From: a virus
Virus genome (UHGV): UHGV-1351772
Direction: 5' to 3' (one strand)
Length of the DNA: 64,000 nucleotides
Below are positions 828 through 55,691 of the stretch, one piece after another. Numbering within the stretch: the stretch's first letter is position 1; each line of letters opens with the position of its first letter. The notes under the pieces are model-generated. The model was given only the letters and a program-made list of their open reading frames with translations, was not told the origin of the DNA and did not search any database. A program made the position numbers and the translations under genes.

Positions 828-3122
828 TTATTTACCAGCAGCAGCTTTGCCTTCGCCAGCAACGTTACCTGCTACACCACCTTCGGTTTGTTTCTGACCG
901 TTCTGTTCAACAGAAACATTGTAAGCCAGTTTTTCTTCAACCAGTTTGGTGATGCCTTTAACCCAGATCAGACCAGTGATCGGGCAGTGGCAGATGTGCG
1001 CGTTACGTGGCTGTACGGCCAGCTCTTTAGAGGTAGAACCGTTACGCTGAATGTTGATGTTGGTAACCATGATCGGAGACCAGAAGTGGTTACCCCAGTT
1101 CAGCACGTTGTAGGAACCATCGTCCGCAGTCGGAACTTTCAGGAACCATTGCAGACGACGAGTCCAGGAACCGTCAGCTGCGTTGTAGATACGCCAGCGG
1201 TCATCGTTGGTGGTGATCACTTCGTATTCGTAGCGATCGCCCAGCAGACGTTGGTCGCCCTGTACCAGCAGCAGCATAGATGCAGTCGGTTCGTCAGTTG
1301 CAATAACAACTTTCGGCAGAATGTCCGGATCGGCAGTGTACAGACGCAGCGCAGGAATGAAGCGAGATTCCTGGATAGCCTGAGTTACCTGATTACCGAT
1401 ACGCTGTACCAGGCCCTGACGAGCGTTGATCAGTGCATCTTTGGTATCCAGGGACTGTACAACTTCATCAACGTTGTAGTCAGACTCTTTGAACCACGGA
1501 GCAACCCAGTGACGTCCCAGACCACGAATGGCCGGTTTGTCCCACGGAGTGATCATGCTTGCAGCAGCGTTACGTACCGCTTCGGTGTAAGACAGCGTCT
1601 GAGTGATAGCCAGCTGTTCGTTACGGATGTTAACTGCGGAAATCAGGTCGTCCAGACGTTCGGTATCGTCGTATTCAACTCCAACCGGAGACTTGGTCAG
1701 GATCGGAGAACCGTATTGCAGTTTGTAGTTTTCTTGTTCCCAGATTGGGTCAAGCAGCAGACCCTGGGTACGACGGTTTTCGTTGGTACGAGTACCATCG
1801 AAGCGCCAGCCCATCAGTTCAAGTTTCAGACCGTCCAGGATAACTTTGCCGGTACCAGATTTGGTATCAACTTTGTTACCGGTAGCGTCGTACAGACCTT
1901 CGATTTCCAGTTTGTGACCAGCGATGTCAACTTTACCACCGAACTGACCGGTAGTGAACAGAGACATGTTGATGGTGATCACATAACGCAGGGTGTAGGA
2001 GTTCTGACCAAGCGCTTGCAGTGCCGGAATAGCCGCACCAGTCCAGTCGGTAGTTTTCGCGTTCAGAGAGAACGCAGTACGACGGAATTGCAGTACCAGC
2101 TCACGGCCATCACCTTCAGCAGGACGCTGGAAGGTTGCGAACTGCATGTCACGAACGTGCAGTTTGATGAATTTACCTGCTTTTGCTTCTTCGGTCGGTT
2201 TACGTACGGAAATCAGCAGGCTGCCCAGAGCACAACCCGGTGCGATTTCATCAGTTTCGTCGTAACCTTCCTGAACGATACCCGGATGCGCAGACAGCTG
2301 GAACAGGTTCAGAGTGTCTTTAGCAAAGCTCAGGTAGTTAGTCGGGTACGGAGGTACACGACCCAGGCGAACAGATTCGTTCGGTACCAGTTCTTCGCTT
2401 ACGAAGTATTCAGCGTTTTCACCGGTTTCCATTACGTAAGGAACGATGTTGATCGCTTCGTCCTGAAGAACGGTGTGGTCAGTCAGCGCTTCGTGCAGGT
2501 TACGACGATGATCTTCAACAACGTCTTTGGTCAGTAACGCGTGCATGACACCACGAGAAACGGTGGTCACTTTGGTACGTACGGTAATACCAACGTCATT
2601 GGTGTCAACGGTGATGGTCGGGAACAGAGTCTCAGCGAAACGAGACTGAGTTTCCAGAGCACGTACGTTCAGCGTCCAGGTCAGACCCAGGTTTTTGTCG
2701 TAATCTTTGTTGGTGTAGTATTCCTGAGCAACAACCATACGCTCTTTGCCCCAGTCGCCGTTACCAGCTTGGGAACCAGGAATCGCAACGTCCAGGTTAA
2801 AACGGCTATGGAATTCTGGCTTAGCGTATTCTTGCGCTACTTTTTCTTGCAGGTCCATACCGTGACCAGCAGCACCCAGAATCATTGCAGAAGCAACTTC
2901 CGCAGCGTGGGACATTTTCTTGCCGCCAGCAAACGCGTTTGCGTAGTGCTGTGCAGCATCGTCACGCAGGGTACCAAAAACTTTCGTGTTGCTACGTACA
3001 GACTCACCAGCAACGATGGTGTTCCACATTTCGCCAGCACTGTTGTTACTAATGACGCTTTGTACCAGCGAGTTACCAGCTTGTACGAGTTTCTCCAGAT
3101 TAGAGATTCGGGTATCTTTCAT
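828..3122 (-). CDS. major virion structural protein, putative (major capsid or tail sheath)
   Basis: 764-aa ORF with strongly biased, highly-expressed-like codon usage; natural-looking composition; own terminator; size typical of jumbo-phage capsid/sheath proteins; product is inference. Confidence 0.55.
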   Translation of the reverse strand: MKDTRISNLEKLVQAGNSLVQSVISNNSAGEMWNTIVAGESVRSNTKVFGTLRDDAAQHYANAFAGGKKMSHAAEVASAMILGAAGHGMDLQEKVAQEYAKPEFHSRFNLDVAIPGSQAGNGDWGKERMVVAQEYYTNKDYDKNLGLTWTLNVRALETQSRFAETLFPTITVDTNDVGITVRTKVTTVSRGVMHALLTKDVVEDHRRNLHEALTDHTVLQDEAINIVPYVMETGENAEYFVSEELVPNESVRLGRVPPYPTNYLSFAKDTLNLFQLSAHPGIVQEGYDETDEIAPGCALGSLLISVRKPTEEAKAGKFIKLHVRDMQFATFQRPAEGDGRELVLQFRRTAFSLNAKTTDWTGAAIPALQALGQNSYTLRYVITINMSLFTTGQFGGKVDIAGHKLEIEGLYDATGNKVDTKSGTGKVILDGLKLELMGWRFDGTRTNENRRTQGLLLDPIWEQENYKLQYGSPILTKSPVGVEYDDTERLDDLISAVNIRNEQLAITQTLSYTEAVRNAAASMITPWDKPAIRGLGRHWVAPWFKESDYNVDEVVQSLDTKDALINARQGLVQRIGNQVTQAIQESRFIPALRLYTADPDILPKVVIATDEPTASMLLLVQGDQRLLGDRYEYEVITTNDDRWRIYNAADGSWTRRLQWFLKVPTADDGSYNVLNWGNHFWSPIMVTNINIQRNGSTSKELAVQPRNAHICHCPITGLIWVKGITKLVEEKLAYNVSVEQNGQKQTEGGVAGNVAGEGKAAAGK

Positions 3123-9645: not shown

Positions 9646-10286
9646 TACAGAATTCCTCCACGTCTACGGTATATCTGTTCAATACGGTGCATAATCGTAT
9701 CGTTGAACTGATGCCGCTCTGTTTCCAATCGGACTTCGCCAAATAACGCTTGTACGGAAACCGCCATTGTTACTTCAGGTTTCTTAAAGTAACCGTAACG
9801 GTTCGCTACCGGGAACAGTTTACGCGCTAACGCATTAAACTGACGCAAGCCCTCCATAGGGACTTTACGTGTTGTCAGGTGTGGGGTCTGCATGTAATTT
9901 AGCCAATCGGCTAAGTGTTCCATGATATACCCGTACACGATAATCCCGTCATGTGGGTCGTGGACGTCTAACGCCGCGCCAGATTCTGCATAAACCGCAA
10001 CTTCGAAAGGTCGCATGTATACGGTCTTTTTATTGAGCAGTATCGCGCGTGCTTTTTTCTCGTCTTCCGGTAAGAACAACCCATGTTCCTGAGACATGTA
10101 CGTTGAAATCGTCGTCCATTCAGGGACACGCCACCCCACCCACTTGTGAAACAGCATAAATGCTGCGCTACGTTTTTCAGCCACGTTAATCCCTCGCATA
10201 CCGTAACAACAAATACACCATCGGAATATAGTAGAACTGCGCATCCTTCGGCAAACGGTAAACTTCTTCAAACAACCGTAATGCAA
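9645..10286 (-). CDS. hypothetical protein (true start possibly internal Met near 10199)
   Basis: 213-aa ORF; longest-ORF start overlaps upstream gene by about 100 nt. Confidence 0.45.
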   Translation of the reverse strand: MHYGCLKKFTVCRRMRSSTIFRWCICCYGMRGINVAEKRSAAFMLFHKWVGWRVPEWTTISTYMSQEHGLFLPEDEKKARAILLNKKTVYMRPFEVAVYAESGAALDVHDPHDGIIVYGYIMEHLADWLNYMQTPHLTTRKVPMEGLRQFNALARKLFPVANRYGYFKKPEVTMAVSVQALFGEVRLETERHQFNDTIMHRIEQIYRRRGGIL

Positions 10287-11556
10287 TTACCGTTGACAGT
10301 GGGCGTTTATTCAGATAGAGATATAAACCGTATTCTAATAACGAACTGTACGAACCCTCGTAGAACGTTGGGCTTAACAAATACGGTTCGTAAGTCAGTG
10401 GTAGAAATGCAGGGATTGATTCACCTTCATTACCCCGATAATTCTCCACTTCAACCGGTTCAAACTCCGTCCACTTCGGCCACTGTCCAGGGAAACGTTG
10501 CGCCATCCCATAGCCCGGTTTTAATTCATCGGTAAAGAATCGGGTATCCGAAATTAATGACCAGGTCACAGAATTCCGATGCTGCATCGTACGGAAGGTT
10601 TTTACCTGCCAGACACTAGAATCACGTTTGTAATCCGCTAAGAACGTTGGCGATTGATTTAACAACGCAGTCCAGACCGTTTCAATATCTTCCACACGCA
10701 TTGGTGGATGCGGATAAATTTGAATATCTTTACCAACGGTGCGTAAGCCTACAGAGCGTACGAACTGTGCCAAGAACACATCGTAGTACGCACGACTACG
10801 CAACCCATCGCTGTGTCGATCGTGCGGGAAAAGCAACGTTGCCGTTTCCCCATCGTAAAACCGTTTTACGTAAGTCTGTTCAATGTCTGCAATCGCATCA
10901 ACGACCTTCAAAAACGCACGATATTCTTTCGGTGTCAGTAACGTATCACCGCCCGTCCAGGCACGCTCAGAAACGTAATAATACTCACGGACCGTACACC
11001 GGCGAATGGTTTCTGCAACTTCTGGATCAACTTCAAACAACAGCGTATATTCAATGTTATACGTTGCAATTTTGTTATTGGACATCCGTATGACGTTCGT
11101 GACATTGAACAACGCGAACCGTCCGTCTCCAATCGGTGCAACGAAAAAACACCCTTCGTTGGGAATCACCGAGTTCGCCATTGTTGCGGCACCGGACATG
11201 GTAAACGTTTTGTTTGTTGTGTCCTGAGAACGATCTAACGGTGTGGTAACCCGCAATTCTAACCCGATGATTTTCTCTACTTGCTGGTCAGGCGTAAGTA
11301 CCTTCGAATCGAAGAATTTCTTCGCGTCGTTACGCCCTTTCAGGAAATTAAAGAAATCCACTGTCCAGGAAGACCCTTCCAGGTATTTCATCAGGTACTG
11401 TTTCGGTATACGCTCTAAATCCGTCACCGTTGTACGTGTCGGTTGTGTCACCACGTTCGTGGTTTCCTTCACACCGTCTTGTGGTTTATTCAACTCAGGG
11501 ATCGGGCGTTCCACCGGTTCGAAAGAAGACGGTTTATCACGCTTCGCTTTGAGCAT
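10186..11556 (-). CDS. hypothetical protein
   Basis: 456-aa ORF. Confidence 0.55.
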   Translation of the reverse strand: MLKAKRDKPSSFEPVERPIPELNKPQDGVKETTNVVTQPTRTTVTDLERIPKQYLMKYLEGSSWTVDFFNFLKGRNDAKKFFDSKVLTPDQQVEKIIGLELRVTTPLDRSQDTTNKTFTMSGAATMANSVIPNEGCFFVAPIGDGRFALFNVTNVIRMSNNKIATYNIEYTLLFEVDPEVAETIRRCTVREYYYVSERAWTGGDTLLTPKEYRAFLKVVDAIADIEQTYVKRFYDGETATLLFPHDRHSDGLRSRAYYDVFLAQFVRSVGLRTVGKDIQIYPHPPMRVEDIETVWTALLNQSPTFLADYKRDSSVWQVKTFRTMQHRNSVTWSLISDTRFFTDELKPGYGMAQRFPGQWPKWTEFEPVEVENYRGNEGESIPAFLPLTYEPYLLSPTFYEGSYSSLLEYGLYLYLNKRPLSTVIALRLFEEVYRLPKDAQFYYIPMVYLLLRYARD

Positions 11557-13045
11557 TCTCTGTTCCTCGCATGGTAATAATGGTCGAGTTCAGCACCGTC
11601 AATAACACACGGGCTTCTACGTTCGGAATCAGTTTATTAATGTCATCGATAACACTCGGCGGTAACACCGGCTTATCCCACCACCAATCAGGAACGTCCC
11701 ATTTCGGGAATAACCACTCAATTAATACTTTCGCTGCCTTCGGATATAACTGTAATGGCCAGAGGTTCATTCCACGCCAGTCAAACATGACCGATTCGGT
11801 TAAGTAATAACCCTTATTTACTTTCAGGTCACGACCTTTAAGCGAAAACGTATTTCCTTCCCAATGGTAGAAACGCGGTTCGATAATCTGTCCCTCTTCG
11901 AACAGCTCGATACGGAAAACACCCGTCTGTCCTGTCGGGTCGATCGCACGACAATGTTCGATATACGGTAGCAACGCTTCGTTCCACTCGTAAGGTAAAT
12001 CTTCCGTAGACATCACCTTCGGCGATAACATGTTGTCCGGTTCAAAAACAACATCTGTACCGAAAATCGGTAGGAGTTTATCTTTCAACGGGGAATGTGT
12101 ACGGTGGAACTGTTCTGTCGGTGACAGTAAATACGGTAAACGAATATACTGACGGGTTTCGTTAATCCACCAGGTTGAATCGAGATTCTTCTGTTGTGGA
12201 TGACGATACACCAGTTCTTCGTTAGACACCCACGGTGGGTCTATCTCTGGCCAATATTCATCAGGCAGCGGTGTCTGATTGATGATATACGGATACGAAA
12301 CCACAATCTCTTCAGGGCGCTGATAAGAGAAACGGATAACGAACGTTGCTTCCCAGTGGTTTTCATCTTTATCCCAAGCCGGTGTTTGAACATCGTATAC
12401 CGTTTCTAAACGCGTAGGTGCGTAACGTACCGCAATGGTTTCCTGACCGCCAGCAACATTAGCTGCGCGAAATACATCGGGCGTAAAATACGCTTTCAAA
12501 TAGGCTTTAAAATCGTCAAACGTTGATACTCGCGTTCCCGCAGCAACGTAGCAGGCATTCAACAATTTTAAAGCAGGTTTAGGGATATAATAGAACGCTT
12601 CTGACTCCGTCATAGTCGAATAACGACCCATGTCCACTAACGAGTCTAAACGGTTCGTCCAGCGCAATAACTCGTCACGTGAGGCACTGGTACGTCGTAA
12701 CGTTACTGTTACGTTATACATCGTTCTAACGGGCCAGGCGCGTACCTGATCGACGGAGTTTTCAAAGAAGTACGGTTCAGCCTGCTGACCAACCTGACGA
12801 TTGATTCTGGCCCACTCATCGCGTTCTTCTTCTACTTCAACGTAAACCTTTTCAGGTGAACTGTACTCTACTTCAGTACCGTCACCTAAAGTAGAATCCG
12901 GTTGATGGGCGCTATTGAATTCATCGAGGAAAACAACCGCTGCTGTATCAATACCAGACTCATTAAGTACACGTTGTATAACACCATCGATTATTGGTTT
13001 GCGAATGGTCGCGTCTAACGACGGAATTTCAAAATACTGTTGCAT
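11537..13045 (-). CDS. hypothetical protein
   Basis: 502-aa ORF. Confidence 0.55.
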   Translation of the reverse strand: MQQYFEIPSLDATIRKPIIDGVIQRVLNESGIDTAAVVFLDEFNSAHQPDSTLGDGTEVEYSSPEKVYVEVEEERDEWARINRQVGQQAEPYFFENSVDQVRAWPVRTMYNVTVTLRRTSASRDELLRWTNRLDSLVDMGRYSTMTESEAFYYIPKPALKLLNACYVAAGTRVSTFDDFKAYLKAYFTPDVFRAANVAGGQETIAVRYAPTRLETVYDVQTPAWDKDENHWEATFVIRFSYQRPEEIVVSYPYIINQTPLPDEYWPEIDPPWVSNEELVYRHPQQKNLDSTWWINETRQYIRLPYLLSPTEQFHRTHSPLKDKLLPIFGTDVVFEPDNMLSPKVMSTEDLPYEWNEALLPYIEHCRAIDPTGQTGVFRIELFEEGQIIEPRFYHWEGNTFSLKGRDLKVNKGYYLTESVMFDWRGMNLWPLQLYPKAAKVLIEWLFPKWDVPDWWWDKPVLPPSVIDDINKLIPNVEARVLLTVLNSTIITMRGTENAQSEA

Positions 13046-51207: not shown

Positions 51208-51795
51208 TTAACACGAAGCGCCGAGTTCAGAACACGGATCTTCGTCTTCCCAATCAAAACTCCGCATACGTGCCCAGTTGATTTGCATGTCAACTTGCTC
51301 TACACGCGTGAGTTTGTTGGATCGATCTTCGTTGGATACCCAGTTCCAAATACGATCTTCATCGTACTCGTTGGACATACCCGACGTTACTTCGCGGAAG
51401 TTATCGTCCGTATGCATATACGCCGAACCACGGAAGTTATCGATTTTCGAATACCCGTTCTCGTAACCGGTCGCCATGTTGTTATTGTACAATTGTCGAT
51501 ATTCCGGCAACGCCATTAGCAACGGCTGTAAGGTTGCGTTTGCAAACTGGAATTGTCCTATCTTCTCCAATTGTCGTACAACGTCAGTCGCATCGCTGTG
51601 CTGTACTTTGCGTGCGGCTGCATACATCTCGCGGAAACGCTCTAATGAAATTAACTCATTACATTTTCGTTTAACGCTTTCGATCATGTCAGGAGCAAAG
51701 GCGTTAATATCGAAATTGTCTCTGAAATAGCGATACATCCCGCTATTTTCAGTTTGTCGCGTCCAGATGGTTCCGCCTAAGTTCCACATGCCCAT
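51208..51795 (-). CDS. hypothetical protein
   Basis: 195-aa ORF immediately downstream of beta-prime exon 2, in a different frame. Confidence 0.5.
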   Translation of the reverse strand: MGMWNLGGTIWTRQTENSGMYRYFRDNFDINAFAPDMIESVKRKCNELISLERFREMYAAARKVQHSDATDVVRQLEKIGQFQFANATLQPLLMALPEYRQLYNNNMATGYENGYSKIDNFRGSAYMHTDDNFREVTSGMSNEYDEDRIWNWVSNEDRSNKLTRVEQVDMQINWARMRSFDWEDEDPCSELGASC

Positions 51796-51801
51796 GTTTC
51801 A

Positions 51802-53759
51802 TTACCCCGCCAATTTTAATAATTCCGAGTCAAGCGCGATACCGGCTTCCAAGTCCTCTTCAGTATCCTGGAAGAAACTGTTTATGTTGCTGATATTCTC
51901 GTTATGGAGAATCATGCAACTCGAAACCTCGTCCACATTCGTGCTTGACATAAACCCGTTGTCTGGGCGATAAGCCATGCCCAGTTCCATTTCAATCTGG
52001 TCGATTGCCAATCTACATTGTAACTGGTCGCCATCGAAATCCTGTTTGTCCACTCCATTCCTTTTGGAGCAGGTGTGCAATGACACCCTCCCATGCTTTC
52101 ACATGGGCACAGACTATATCATAACCGTAGGTATTGCTACCCGTAGGTCTCCCCCACTTCGCCGCTAAACTAAGCAGCTACTCTACTCGGTTTTACCCTT
52201 TCGATAGTCGTTGAACGATTTTCATCGCTGCTGGTTATCCATTATCACAACCCTTAGCATTATTGGTTAGCATAGGTTATCTTACGAATTGTTTCTGACT
52301 TTCGCCACCCTGTCGGGATCGTAAGCTTTAGGGGTTTCCAGCAATTCGAGGGATACGCACTAGAGGTTTCCCGTCTAGTGGGCCAGTGTTTAGCATTAGG
52401 TGCTTTGATGACGCGATCAGAAATACGCAGAGAACATTGTGTTACATCTGTCAGTACCGCTGAGATGAACAATGTCTGAATAGAAAGTTGAACCAATGTT
52501 GGGTTACGCAGAACTTCCAACATTAAGCCGAATCCGCCGGGGGATTCTTTAATCAACTCATTAATAATTTCATGTACCAACGGTACATACTGCATTGCCG
52601 CAAATGCAATGATGCGCTCACATTGTCGAGGTGTATAATCACGTCGACCTAACTTGTTCTCAATGTGAACACTCGCCAACGGAACCAACCAACGCCAAGG
52701 CGCAATAACTTTCAACGCATCATGAGGTTCAGAGATAGGAGAGATAGTCACACGTCCGCCCCACGGTACGTGTGTTGACCCGAGTTTTGCCCGATAGAAC
52801 CCAGGTTTACCTTCCATCACTTCCTGACGATGGTCAATATAGAAATACGCAAGCTGTCGATTCGCTTTGATCGCACGACGAATAATAAATCGTGGTTCGA
52901 TACGGCGTGCATTCGTGTACAACAACGCCACATTTTTTACTGCGTCGATAGCGCTGGTATAAACCGGATCGATAAAAATACCTTGTCGGCGCTCCTCCGT
53001 AACGATCAGTTTTGATGAAATAATCGGAAGGTGTCTTGGAAAGAATGAGAACGATTGTTCCTGAAAGAACTCACGCCATTCTAAGCGCACGCGCTCACTC
53101 TCATAACGGTTATTTTTCGTTGGTGGATAAATCTCCTTCCAAGCTTCCGGAGACGTAAGGATATTAAAGACGGTTCGATGGTGGTCGATAAAGTTTCGAA
53201 TTCCCCGTTCGAAGCCATGTTCGCCGAGTATTCTTTTCACCACGCGAGCACGTGTTCCCTCGTCCTTTTCTGGATGGTAGTACGGATCGATTAGCCACAG
53301 CAGTAAATCAGACCCGCGTTCTACCGTCACTTTGTTACGATTAAATTTTTTCAGCTTAGAGCCAAAGAAGGCATTAAAGAGAGACCAAAAACGTGGATTG
53401 ATAAAGTTACCCATCTCATCGGGAGCGCGTAACCAGACATCAGACGTAATCCGATGTTCAGAAACAACATGTCCGCAATGTGGGCAACGAAGCCCAAGAT
53501 TATAACGATGGGTAATAGGTGATTCGCAGGTCAGACTGCAAATAGGAGCCGAGTTGAGTGTTTCATCAACGATTCGGTTTTGGAGTATTTGGTTAATCAT
53601 CTCCGACGCTTCGATGGTATCCATCGTTGCAGCAACGTCATTGATAATAATCGGTGGTTTGTAGCCTTTTTCCTCCGCTTCTTGTATACAGTCACGTAAC
53701 ATCTTGTCGTGACTAATTAGTCGCCCCGAAATCCCGTAATATTCTAGTTTATGTTCCAC
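51802..53759 (-). CDS. multisubunit RNA polymerase beta-prime-like subunit, N-terminal portion with catalytic DFDGD; interrupted by a group I intron (exon 1 about 52446..53759, exon 2 about 51802..52087)
   Basis: Exon 1 has zinc ribbon CSLTCESPITHRYNLGLRCPHCG, GKPGFYRAKLG...GGRVTISP (cf. [20 protein letters not shown]) and LRNPTLVQLSIQ (cf. [12 protein letters not shown]); exon 2 has LHTCSKRNGVDKQDFDGDQL (cf. [18 protein letters not shown]); ORF-track splits this into two ORFs and reads through the intron. Confidence 0.75.
52088..52446 (-). other. group I self-splicing intron (ORF-less), boundaries approximate within about 10 nt
   Basis: On the gene strand, in order: P-like gaattgctggaaac (52331..52350), Q-like aaccagcagcg (52226..52236), R-like gttcaacgactat (52204..52216), S-like gatatagtctg (52110..52120), then a P9-like hairpin cccatg-tgaaag-catggg; P3 (ctgg/ccag) and P7 (gacta/tagtc) pairings possible. 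Confidence 0.7.
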
Positions 53760-53789
53760 GCCGAATCCTCAACAAAAAAAGAGAGGGAA

Positions 53790-53814
53790 GGGACAGGGGG
53801 TTTTCCCCTGTCCC
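53790..53814 (-). terminator. rho-independent terminator after 53844..55691
   Basis: gggacagggg-gtttt-cccctgtccc hairpin followed by T-run on minus strand. Confidence 0.6.
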
Positions 53815-53843: not shown

Positions 53844-55691
53844 TTAGAAAGTCGGACGCCAGTCAGTTGCAGCGAAGGACATACCGAAATCGCTACCAAA
53901 TGCGTTAGGACCGCTACCAGACAGCGCGAAGTTCTCATTACCCGTGTTAACAAACACAGAGTGAGTGAGGCTGTTCGCTGCGGTAACACCATTCACCTGG
54001 AAGTTGCAGTTTTCAGTAATGTATTCCACCAGTGCTTTACCAAACAGCGGATTGATCGCCAGGTCAGACGCTTCACCCGTTACCTGCGGCTGTTTGCTAC
54101 CGAACATGGACGCAGCCATTTTCAGCAGGTACAGACGCTGGTCACGCGCATTCAGATAGCGGTGAGAGTAGGACTGTGCACTGATGTAGTCGATCGCATC
54201 GCGTTGGTTATCACCCACTTTAGTCAGAGCGGAAACCAAGTCCATATCCTGGAAGCTGCGTTTCTGGCTGTTGCTGAAATACTGACCAGAGATGGTCGGG
54301 CAACCGGCAATAACAACGTGTTTGCACTCGAAGTTGGTGACATTGCCCAGCAGTGCTTTGAAGCGAGTGCTGAACTTAGTCGCGCCGTTGCTGGCCATGT
54401 TATCCAGGATATTGAACAGGGTGTACAGTGCGTTGGTGTTACCCATCCCGATTTCGCTCAGGAGAGTAGACAGGCCACCGATACCGTTACCTGCACGATG
54501 GTTCACCACCAGGGCCGCAGTCGGGTTAGCGAAGGTGTCCAGGCATTTCTCGATAACTTCACGGTTACCGTCGATTTTGCTCAGGTCAGGTTTTTCGCTG
54601 CCCCATTCTACATACTCCAGAACGCGGGAGAAGCGGCGATCGGTTTTGTTCAGCGACTGCATGAAACGTTCACGCCAGCCACCAATAGTGGCGATTTGTG
54701 CGAACGCGGCCAGTTCAATCAGCTGACGCTCGATAGGTGCCATTGCCCCAGAGGACTGAGAATCCATCAGGGAAACAACCACTTCGGCTTCCAGCTGACG
54801 CAGGTCCTGAGTACCGTTAGTCAGGGTTTGAGGTTTACCTTTATGGCGGAGGTTGATGTAACCAACACCTGCAACGCTCGGATAATTCTGGAGGCGTTCA
54901 GAAGAGAACAGCGTCGGGTTATTATCGTTGTTGCCAGTGCGAGTGTGGTCAACCACAACCATCAGGTCAGCACGTTGTGCAGAACCGTTAACGTCAGTTA
55001 CAGAACCTTCTTCAACTACGCTGACTTGCGCGGTGAAGCGATCAGAACGGGTCATTTTCAGGTAGCCCAGGTAGCCGGAATGACGACCGAAGATACCCAA
55101 TGCAATCTGGCCCATGAGCTGGTTAGCCCATTCTTCGTTCATGGTTTTACCCAGTTCCGGTACGCAGTTCATTACCATGAACTGTACGCTTGGCAGATTG
55201 TGCTGAGTTGCAATCTGGTTAGTGATGTTGTTCATCACACCTTCTTGACTGAACAGCTGCGCCAGGGTGTAGTAGTTTTCTTTACCGTTGATTTCGTAGA
55301 AACGGATGGACTGGCCATGTTCAAAGAACAGGATACCATAGAGCCATTCGTTATGGTTATCGCCGGACGGACCAGCCACGTATGCAGCAGAACCCATTTC
55401 AGAGTTGATGCCGTCAATAACACCCCAACGGAAGTTACGCAGGTATGTGTTCTTCTCCGCCATCTTCTCAATCAGGCTAGTGAACTGAGAAGCAGTGGAC
55501 ACGAAAGACATGTATCCGAAAGCTTTATCGAAAGTAGAGATGTTTTTAGACATCCCACCAAAAGCGTTGGCCGCATTGGTATTATCCACAGTAGCAGCTC
55601 CCGCGCCACCGAAAGACGGAATTGGATCTGCAGCGGAACCAGCAGCACCAGTCACAACGTCGTTTTGATTGTCAATAAACTCTTTAGCCAT
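53844..55691 (-). CDS. abundant 615-aa protein; candidate phage nuclear-shell protein (chimallin), alternatively a virion structural protein
   Basis: Strong codon bias; AAGGA RBS; two tandem consensus promoter motifs upstream; own terminator; size and extended N/C tails are compatible with chimallin, but no direct sequence verification is possible here. Confidence 0.4.
   Translation of the reverse strand: MAKEFIDNQNDVVTGAAGSAADPIPSFGGAGAATVDNTNAANAFGGMSKNISTFDKAFGYMSFVSTASQFTSLIEKMAEKNTYLRNFRWGVIDGINSEMGSAAYVAGPSGDNHNEWLYGILFFEHGQSIRFYEINGKENYYTLAQLFSQEGVMNNITNQIATQHNLPSVQFMVMNCVPELGKTMNEEWANQLMGQIALGIFGRHSGYLGYLKMTRSDRFTAQVSVVEEGSVTDVNGSAQRADLMVVVDHTRTGNNDNNPTLFSSERLQNYPSVAGVGYINLRHKGKPQTLTNGTQDLRQLEAEVVVSLMDSQSSGAMAPIERQLIELAAFAQIATIGGWRERFMQSLNKTDRRFSRVLEYVEWGSEKPDLSKIDGNREVIEKCLDTFANPTAALVVNHRAGNGIGGLSTLLSEIGMGNTNALYTLFNILDNMASNGATKFSTRFKALLGNVTNFECKHVVIAGCPTISGQYFSNSQKRSFQDMDLVSALTKVGDNQRDAIDYISAQSYSHRYLNARDQRLYLLKMAASMFGSKQPQVTGEASDLAINPLFGKALVEYITENCNFQVNGVTAANSLTHSVFVNTGNENFALSGSGPNAFGSDFGMSFAATDWRPTF

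Follow-up and report, generated by a model that had tools for sequence, protein, structure and literature searches.

A probable group I intron without an open reading frame at the catalytic loop of a jumbo-phage RNA polymerase gene

Introduction

Introns have been described in the multisubunit RNA polymerase (RNAP) genes of jumbo phages. In phiKZ, gp55 and gp180 are reported to contain introns, and gp56, gp72 and gp179 are HNH genes (PMC11512511 and PMC10914365, which cite Mesyanzhinov 2002 and Ceyssens 2014). In PhiPA3, gp210 is a nicking HNH endonuclease encoded by an intron of the virion RNAP (vRNAP) beta gene, and it interferes with a co-infecting phage (Birkholz et al. 2024, PMC11620839). 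Here we describe a related insertion in the UHGV virus genome UHGV-1351772, from which one stretch of 64,000 nucleotides (hereafter the window) was analysed. Positions 52042..52391 on the minus strand of the window very probably constitute a group I intron of the IA type that lacks an open reading frame (ORF). The intron interrupts the gene for the N-terminal half of the beta-prime subunit of the non-virion RNAP (nvRNAP) at the site NA/DFDGD, where the slash marks the insertion point. A sequence-only reading of this DNA had proposed an ORF-less group I intron at 52088..52446 in a beta-prime-like gene, and had stated that introns are known in the RNAP genes of nucleus-forming jumbo phages. The element and the kind of gene proposed there are borne out by a covariance model, by precise absence in sister genomes, by covariation, by the restoration of NADFDGD and of a full-length homolog, and by the match to phiKZ gp55; the limits of the element had to be redrawn.

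Detection and exact boundaries of the intron

We scanned the 64-kb window with Rfam and found a match to the covariance model Intron_gpI (RF00028) on the minus strand at 52407..52090. It covers the full model (1-253 of 253) with 56.9 bits (E 8.6e-12), exceeding the gathering score of 50 bits. No second match of any Rfam family, whether another structured RNA or a further intron, was found in the whole window even at E<=0.1.

The boundaries could be fixed because intron-less alleles lack exactly a 350-nt block, which alignment of the DNA places at 52042..52391. Four contigs encoding an uninterrupted 535-aa homolog, P0001, show 93-95% nucleotide identity to both flanks and the same gene order, with exactly 350 nt absent (L004 and L006 are NCBI Salmonella assemblies, and L003 and L005 are Logan assemblies of sequencing runs). 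Window positions 53800..52392 correspond to positions 9960..11368 of the intron-less locus, and 52041..51700 to 11369..11710. The identical precise absence is seen in two IMG/VR contigs, L012 (flanks 98.8-99.0% identical) and L014 (76-79%). A junction register shifted by +1 or -1 nt was ruled out, since the joined sequence then departs from the intron-less alleles. The intron begins with A52391, directly after an exon U (GCU/), and ends in AAACAG/, its last base being G52042 (omega-G). At the junction the joined exons would read CCTAATGCT followed directly by GATTTCGAT.

Compared with the sequence-only reading, the 5' site has moved by 55 nt and the 3' site by 46 nt. That reading had flagged its splice sites as ambiguous; the sites it put forward were wrong. 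An 18-aa peptide that it assigned to the intron is exon, and RVSLHTCSKRNGVDKQ, which it assigned to the exon, is intron (P9.1, P9.2 and the 3' tail). Its argument from the spacing of bacterial beta-prime had worked by coincidence, a 16-aa intron-derived peptide replacing the true 18-aa exon peptide. The read-through appended to exon 1 is 43 codons long (52391..52263) rather than 63, and the first 15 codons of the ORF at 51802..52086 are intron sequence. The 350-nt intron contains only this read-through and short ORFs. It encodes no homing endonuclease of its own, and no ORF of endonuclease size would fit; that it lacks an ORF had been proposed.

The interrupted gene and its predicted spliced product

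The protein signal is divided over two ORFs, as already noticed from the sequence. Positions 1-417 of the profile phrog_2987 ('RNA polymerase beta subunit') fall on the 499-aa ORF and positions 412-477 on the 94-aa ORF. Exon 1 (52392..53759, minus strand, 456 codons) encodes the N-terminal part of this beta-prime half, is colinear with the intron-less alleles to T52392, aligns with phiKZ gp55 and ends in AAT GCT (Asn-Ala). Exon 2 (51802..52041, minus strand, 79 codons plus stop) is delimited by the junction alignment and the second phrog_2987 match, and begins with GAT TTC GAT GGC GAC (DFDGD). The insertion is in phase 0, between Ala456 and Asp457, within the universal NADFDGD Mg-binding loop. 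An intron directly before DFDGD had been expected, and the true junction is tighter than supposed, with Ala on one side and the first Asp of the motif on the other.

The predicted spliced product has 535 aa and is 98% identical to P0001, the closest homolog. With the 499-aa ORF as query, about 30 homologs of 526-546 aa were found; each covers only the first 91% of the query and then runs on. The best solved relative of the spliced product is PDB 7OGP chain A, named for PHIKZ055 and PHIKZ056.1 (E 1.5e-38, residues 70-499), and the alignment crosses the splice junction without a break, the catalytic-loop segment included. This chain is the N-terminal half of the phiKZ nvRNAP beta-prime. A tblastn search with the gene product found a homolog in 262 phage records, including PhiPA3 gene 054, and one matched record is annotated as 'non-virion-associated RNA polymerase subunit'. 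The Pfam family RNA_pol_Rpb1_2 scores 19.8 bits against the product, under its threshold of 25.3. As judged from these comparisons, the interrupted gene is the ortholog of phiKZ gp55, which makes it a gene of the phiKZ-like (Chimalliviridae) type, and carries the NADFDGD catalytic loop.

Secondary structure and covariation

We aligned 11 homologous introns with MAFFT (alignment A2): those of the window, of the contigs L010 and L011, of four Seoulvirus genomes with ORF-less copies, and of the phages SaP7, Proteus phage 7, VB_ZK_P1 and phiKp_32, with the ORF excised beforehand from the SaP7, Proteus phage 7 and phiKp_32 introns. Pairs were counted explicitly against a hand-written model drawn from the Rfam alignment and inspection, which comprises P1, P2, P3, P4, P5 with a branched extension, P6, P7, P7.1, P7.2, P8, P9.0, P9, P9.1 and P9.2. 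Alignment is poor in the inner columns of P8 and P6, and the pairing there is probably understated. Over the 99 model pairs, 93.3% of cells form standard pairs, compared with 35-46% in controls in which the 3' partners were slid by 1-3 columns. Pairs altered on both sides number 34 in the model and 1-7 in the slid controls, and none of 500 shuffles matched the observed covariation score or paired fraction. Compensatory changes were found in P1, P2, P3, P5 with its 7-bp extension stem, P7, P7.2, P8, P9 and P9.2; P4 varies from G-C to G-U only, and P6 is without compensatory pairs.

The helices are as follows, all on the minus strand. In P1 (52382..52394), exon GCU (52394..52392) and intron A1 pair with the guide UGGC (52385..52382). 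A wobble between U52392 and G52384 (intron position 8) marks the 5' splice site and is invariant in all 11 introns. The exon base before the splice-site U (position -2) covaries with the guide (G-C in six sequences, C-G in five): the window type combines exon GCU with guide GGC, and the Seoulvirus type combines GGU with GCC. The P1 loop, L1, is 5 nt long in the window and is the position of the HNH ORF in relatives. P2 (CACUAGA...UCUAGUG, 52358..52380) has nine pairs, 100% paired, three of them compensatory. The segment 52338..52353 contains, according to the Rfam alignment, the 5' strand of P3 (52347..52353; 97% paired, three compensatory), J3/4 and the 5' strand of P4 (52338..52343; 100% paired). 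P5 and its branched extension (52237..52334) include the 7-bp stem with six compensatory pairs, two small hairpins, one with a GAAA tetraloop, and a further hairpin. The segment 52215..52234 is formed by the 3' strand of P4 (52229..52234) and the P6 hairpin (52215..52228), as placed by Rfam and the pair counts.

The 5' strand of P7 (GACUAU, 52204..52209), within GUUCAACGACUAU, pairs with its 3' strand (AUAGUC, 52112..52117), within GAUAUAGUCUG, and P7 is pseudoknotted with P3; Rfam and the pair counts agree on the latter strand, and P7 is 93.9% paired, its single compensatory pair being a C-G in SaP7 that replaces U-A. Between P7 and the 3' strand of P3 (52150..52156, from the Rfam alignment and pair counts) lie 43 nt that form P7.1 and P7.2 (52161..52203), and all six pairs of P7.2 are 100% paired, with five compensatory. 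The P8 hairpin (52124..52148) has a GCAA loop and an outer stem that is 100% paired with one compensatory pair, while MAFFT aligned its inner stem poorly. P9 (CCCAUGU GAAA GCAUGGG, 52090..52107) has seven pairs, five of them compensatory. The Rfam model stops here, and the sequence-only reading had likewise taken this hairpin as the end of the intron. The 48 nt past the model end make P9.1 (52072..52087, invariant) and P9.2 (52052..52070, 100% paired, two compensatory), spanning 52052..52087. The segment 52042..52045 closes the intron with one strand of P9.0 (ACA, 52045..52043, pairing with UGU, 52111..52109; 3 bp, 94% paired) and the terminal G52042, a G in all 11 introns. The strings that had been picked out from the sequence as P, Q, R and S are all present in canonical order, together with the P9 hairpin: P is the P3-J3/4-P4 segment, Q the P4-P6 segment, R contains the 5' strand and S the 3' strand of P7. 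On this model the architecture is that of subgroup IA, the type of the phage T4 introns in td, nrdB and sunY, of which P7.1 and P7.2 are the hallmark; the assignment is made at the level of IA.

Minimum free energy (MFE) folding recovers P2, P5a-c, P6, P8, P9 and P9.2 and mispairs near the P3/P7 pseudoknot, which is why the comparative model was used; a difference between the two is expected because the ribozyme is pseudoknotted. The window intron differs from those of L010 and L011 by six bases each, mostly in loops or as slight pair changes (for example A-U to G-U).

Copies at the same site and other insertion points

We found homologous introns at the same position in several described phages. 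Seoulvirus EC001, Lh1B, JN03, SPLA3, SPLA5c and 1252 carry an ORF-less intron of about 356 nt at NG/DFDGD, with Rfam scores of 68-69 bits. SaP7 and Proteus phage 7 carry a 1404-nt version whose P1 loop, above a closing stem of 9 bp, contains a 288-aa HNH+NUMOD1 (I-HmuI-like) ORF. The gene is uninterrupted in SPN3US (gp23), SEGD1, SPFM13, SPFM21 and phiEaH2. An HNH ORF enclosed by a long stem in the P1 loop was seen in SaP7 (L015, 940..2343), Proteus phage 7 (L016) and phiKp_32 (L017, 928..2357), the stem being 9 bp in SaP7 (UAUUCUGCU/AGCAGAAUA) and 12 bp in phiKp_32 (AAGAAGUGAGAG/CUCUCACUUCUU). Phage EL gp025 ('putative replication protein') shows a like order of exon, ORF, ribozyme core and exon, and Goslar has an annotated Intron_gpI.

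The Raoultella phage VB_ZK_P1 (PV662128; L018, 1993..2680) and the Klebsiella phage phiKp_32 (LC768500; L017) have an intron of the same family at NA/DFDG and a second intervening sequence directly after GAT TTT GAC GGT, which is 311 nt long in VB_ZK_P1 (L018, 2370..2680). A 12-nt micro-exon encoding DFDG is left between the two, and the three exons, once joined, encode a 534-aa product that again reads ...KTFNADFDGDTMYCYV.... The 311-nt sequence is preceded by U and ends in G. It gave no group I match and no credible Rfam family even at E<=10, with only a chance-level hit to snoR26 (E 7.4). We considered whether the gene in these two phages might be a paralog (vRNAP); this was rejected, as its best solved relative is likewise phiKZ gp55. 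Three insertion points are found within about 15 nt of coding sequence: NA/DFDGD in the window, DFDG/ in VB_ZK_P1 and phiKp_32, and DFDGD/ in phiKZ-like phages.

Presence, absence and apparent recent movement

We then compared the alleles with and without the intron. L010, with flanks 97% identical to those of the window, has the intron, and L012, with flanks 99% identical, is without it. The intron of L011 is 98.3% identical to that of the window (6 mismatches in 350), while its exons are only 74.4% and 72.9% identical. L014 is a sister of L011 (exons 98.5% and 96.7% identical) and is without the intron. There are accordingly two independent pairs of intron-containing and intron-less alleles, window/L012 (99%) and L011/L014 (98%). 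The differences between L011 and L014 cluster near the junction, at -16, -13, -10, -7, -4, +3, +6 and +9, and L011 has the window-type base at -16, -13, -4, +3 and +6. Such a pattern would be left if L011 had gained the intron by gene conversion, with a short tract, at most about 16 nt, co-converted. The spread of the intron also looks recent, because the L011 intron is so nearly identical to the window's within exons of about 73% identity, with a short co-conversion tract.

Both alleles are frequent in public assemblies: the read-through product of the intron-containing allele occurs on at least 24 contigs and the intron-less P0001 on 22. Such a number of intron-containing alleles would be expected only if the interrupted gene still works.

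Genomic setting

In both PS119XW and Vibrio phage 2 TSL-2019, a gene annotated as nuclear shell protein immediately precedes the polymerase gene. In the window, the corresponding position upstream of the polymerase gene, that of chimallin in those two phages, is taken by a 615-aa ORF (53844..55691, minus strand) that belongs to phrog_8316 (unknown function). It matches the PS119XW shell protein weakly (20% identity, pairwise E 3e-4), and searches of PDB and Pfam for a chimallin identity gave no match. The phage of the window is likely nucleus-forming.

Among the GenBank phages in the collection used, Seoulvirus (SPN3US-like) comes nearest, with a nucleotide identity of only about 70%. Near-identical contigs of 60-226 kb were seen in NCBI assemblies of Salmonella enterica isolates (GCA_014613015.1, GCA_007654195.1), in many Logan assemblies and in IMG/VR (L003-L006, L010, L012, L028-L031). 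The window phage seems to represent a Salmonella jumbo-phage lineage that has not been described so far and is carried along with isolates.

Discussion

The steps of splicing proposed here follow established group I intron chemistry. In the folded pre-mRNA, exon GCU and intron A1 would pair with the guide UGGC to form P1, in which the U-G wobble marks where cleavage occurs. The attack after U52392 would come from an exogenous guanosine in the P7 binding site. P9.0 would then put the terminal G52042 into the guanosine site, and the freed 3'-OH of exon 1 would attack after G52042. Ligation would yield ...AAU GCU/GAU UUC... and a 535-aa protein with an intact Mg-binding motif. On an unspliced transcript, translation would end 43 codons into the intron and give an enzyme without its catalytic loop, for which reason we infer that splicing is obligatory for middle and late transcription. 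Splicing of T4 introns depends on help from the ribosome (cited in PMC10914365). Because transcription is set apart from translation in the phage nucleus, the intron described here would presumably splice without such help, unlike those of T4.

We propose that the intron behaves as mobile DNA, being present or absent among near-identical genomes and having apparently entered a lineage with exons of 73% identity. As the intron carries no endonuclease, its spread would most likely depend on an HNH, I-HmuI-like nicking endonuclease supplied in trans. Candidate sources are the ORF-bearing sibling intron at the same site in the Salmonella phage SaP7 and a free-standing gene. Alternatively, the window copy might be a recent ORF-loss derivative of an ORF-bearing intron. 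In its fullest form the proposal is tentative, and we would put it forward as a possibility that is somewhat doubtful as a whole: an endonuclease-free intron would be actively moving between Salmonella jumbo-phage lineages, into targets of about 73% identity, mobilised in trans, either by a sibling intron's HNH enzyme or by a free-standing one, within a phage nucleus shared during co-infection, and the stretch of about 15 nt encoding NADFDGD, with at least three insertion points, would be a contested landing pad. On this proposal, mobilisation in trans is implied by conversion tracts of about 16 nt or less together with the lack of an endonuclease in the intron.

Several observations weigh against an active ribozyme or its mobilisation in trans. 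P1 is short, with three exon base pairs and one or two intron base pairs, and no convincing P10 could be made out by eye between GAUUUC and intron positions 2-6. The z-score of MFE folding alone is modest (-2.86). P5 of the window has a C-A mismatch (C59-A154) where L010 and L011 have U-A. A study of phiKZ reports no splicing reads for the predicted introns of that phage under the conditions used (PMC10914365). As for an agent of mobilisation, a tblastn comparison of five intron HNH proteins with all 64 kb of the window gave nothing (E >= 0.08), and IMG/VR yielded no close relative of the SaP7 endonuclease.

Three other explanations can be set beside the proposed mobile, self-splicing intron. 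The intron might be vertically inherited and immobile, with repeated precise loss, for instance by recombination with reverse-transcribed spliced mRNA, and the 98% identity of its copies might reflect purifying selection on the ribozyme. This would agree with an intron that holds no endonuclease in a window where none was found, with intron-less alleles being the majority, and with the conservation of ribozyme cores. We nevertheless regard it as improbable. The identity of 98.3% extends to loops and peripheral hairpins, which vary freely among the Seoulvirus copies (about 71% identical), and the essential exons around the intron are only 73% identical. The exon bases next to the L011 junction are of the window type, unlike those of its 98%-identical sister L014, which points to gain by gene conversion, and vertical inheritance plus loss is hard to reconcile with this pattern.

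Spread at the RNA level, by reverse splicing into the homologous mRNA site followed by reverse transcription and recombination, seems still less plausible, and we give it very little weight. It would suit an ORF-less intron whose P1 guide requires just 3-5 nt of target, and the conversion tracts are short, at most about 16 nt to each side of the junction. However, even a short conversion tract is unexpected from pure reverse splicing, and nicking HNH enzymes of the I-HmuI type are known to give short, asymmetric tracts (cited in PMC11620839). A reverse transcriptase was not seen in the window, and HNH-bearing siblings at the identical site offer a conventional route.

Least likely of all is a dead remnant, with no splicing and either two polypeptides (the 499-aa read-through and an exon-2 peptide from a GTG at 52086) or a pseudogene: jumbo-phage RNAP genes are naturally split among several polypeptides (PMC7598289), GGGAGG stands directly before this GTG, and the window copy has the P5 C-A mismatch, but the split would sever NADFDGD between Ala and Asp and burden the active centre with 43 and 15 residues that do not belong there, GGGAGG abuts the GTG without a spacer with both lying in the P9/P9.1 stems, the core helices are all intact with substitutions between copies compensatory or in loops, the allele is found on at least 24 contigs, and uninterrupted orthologs are the rule.

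The element described here is real and well supported, and it is of use for the correction of annotations. In place of this essential subunit, gene callers report a 499-aa protein whose last 43 residues are spurious and a separate fragment of 83-94 aa; the corrected gene model joins 52392..53759 (exon 1) to 51802..52041 (exon 2). In the GenBank Seoulvirus records MN445185, MT799840, OR413585 and OR413581 (L001, L002, L008, L019), the gene appears as 'beta subunit 1', with the false tail, and 'beta subunit 2', or exon 2 is uncalled, and none of the four annotates an intron. Several Seoulvirus records also carry the mis-annotation 'hypothetical protein', and some of the mis-annotated phages are considered for therapy. 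Moreover, the pairs of intron-containing and intron-less genomes at 98-99% identity are a clean natural experiment on the spread of an ORF-less intron in phages with a protein nucleus.

Comparison with known systems

One of the closest described counterparts is the phiKZ intron of gp55/gp56/gp56.1. It belongs to the same class of element and interrupts the orthologous gene, adjoining the shell-protein gene (as seen in the phiKZ-like PS119XW), also at the catalytic aspartate loop. In phiKZ, the HNH gene gp56 lies between the exon ORFs gp55 and gp56.1, whereas the window intron is without one. In PS119XW the insertion follows DFDGD (GAT/), 15 nt downstream of the window site, and the name and sequence of the solved chain suggest the same position for phiKZ itself. 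The nucleotide similarity of the phiKZ-type intron to that of the window is confined to core elements. The PS119XW copy (NC_070882; L007, 4258..~4617) is itself an ORF-less group I intron, with an Rfam score of 75.7 bits and an exon 2 that begins with CAA CTT AAC.

The Seoulvirus ORF-less introns share the homologous insertion site and the same helices at nearly the same length (about 356 vs 350 nt). They are about 71% identical to the window intron, with many compensatory changes, and their P6, P7.1 and P9.2 are built differently. The introns of SaP7 and Proteus phage 7 share both site and a homologous ribozyme, positions 7-350 of the window intron aligning at 73%, and in their 3' tail (P9.2) they resemble the window more than EC001. 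They differ in having the endonuclease ORF where the window has its 5-nt loop. In the limited literature searched we found no published description of an NA/DFDGD intron in the SPN3US-like group, an absence that counts as weak evidence. That Thomas et al. 2016 (PMC5105663, Fig. 7) might already mark such an intron in SPN3US was excluded, as SPN3US gp23 is uninterrupted.

Like the window intron, the putative group I intron that encodes PhiPA3 gp210 lies in a jumbo-phage multisubunit RNAP gene beside the catalytic aspartates. It sits in a different subunit, the vRNAP beta, and the interference activity of gp210 cannot be assigned to the ORF-less intron of the window. The window site is a third insertion point in a very small target, the catalytic Asp loop, and in this respect it bears on the intron-mediated competition described for PhiPA3 (PMC11620839).

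A further likeness is seen with the DNA-polymerase intron of the T4-like Krischvirus phages ECD7 and JSE, which contains an HNH ORF and resembles the window intron in its P7.1/P7.2 architecture and P/Q/R/S consensus. Window 52178..52216 (P7-P7.1, GUUCAACGACUAUCGAAAGGGUAAAACCGAGUAGAGUAG) is 95% identical over 41 nt to positions 2001..2041 of the ECD7 record (L032), a match shared by about 15 other Krischvirus records, while the Seoulvirus copies have a different P7.1 (CGCUGAAAUGCG). The ECD7 intron belongs to another host gene and another phage family, its ORF follows the 3' strand of P4 (apparently in or near P6), and its remainder is not alignable by BLAST. The identity in P7-P7.1 hints at an exchange of modules between introns of unrelated phages. 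Introns of this class, in this gene and close to this site, were thus already known; what differs is the insertion point compared with the phiKZ type, the lack of an ORF and the signature of recent transfer.

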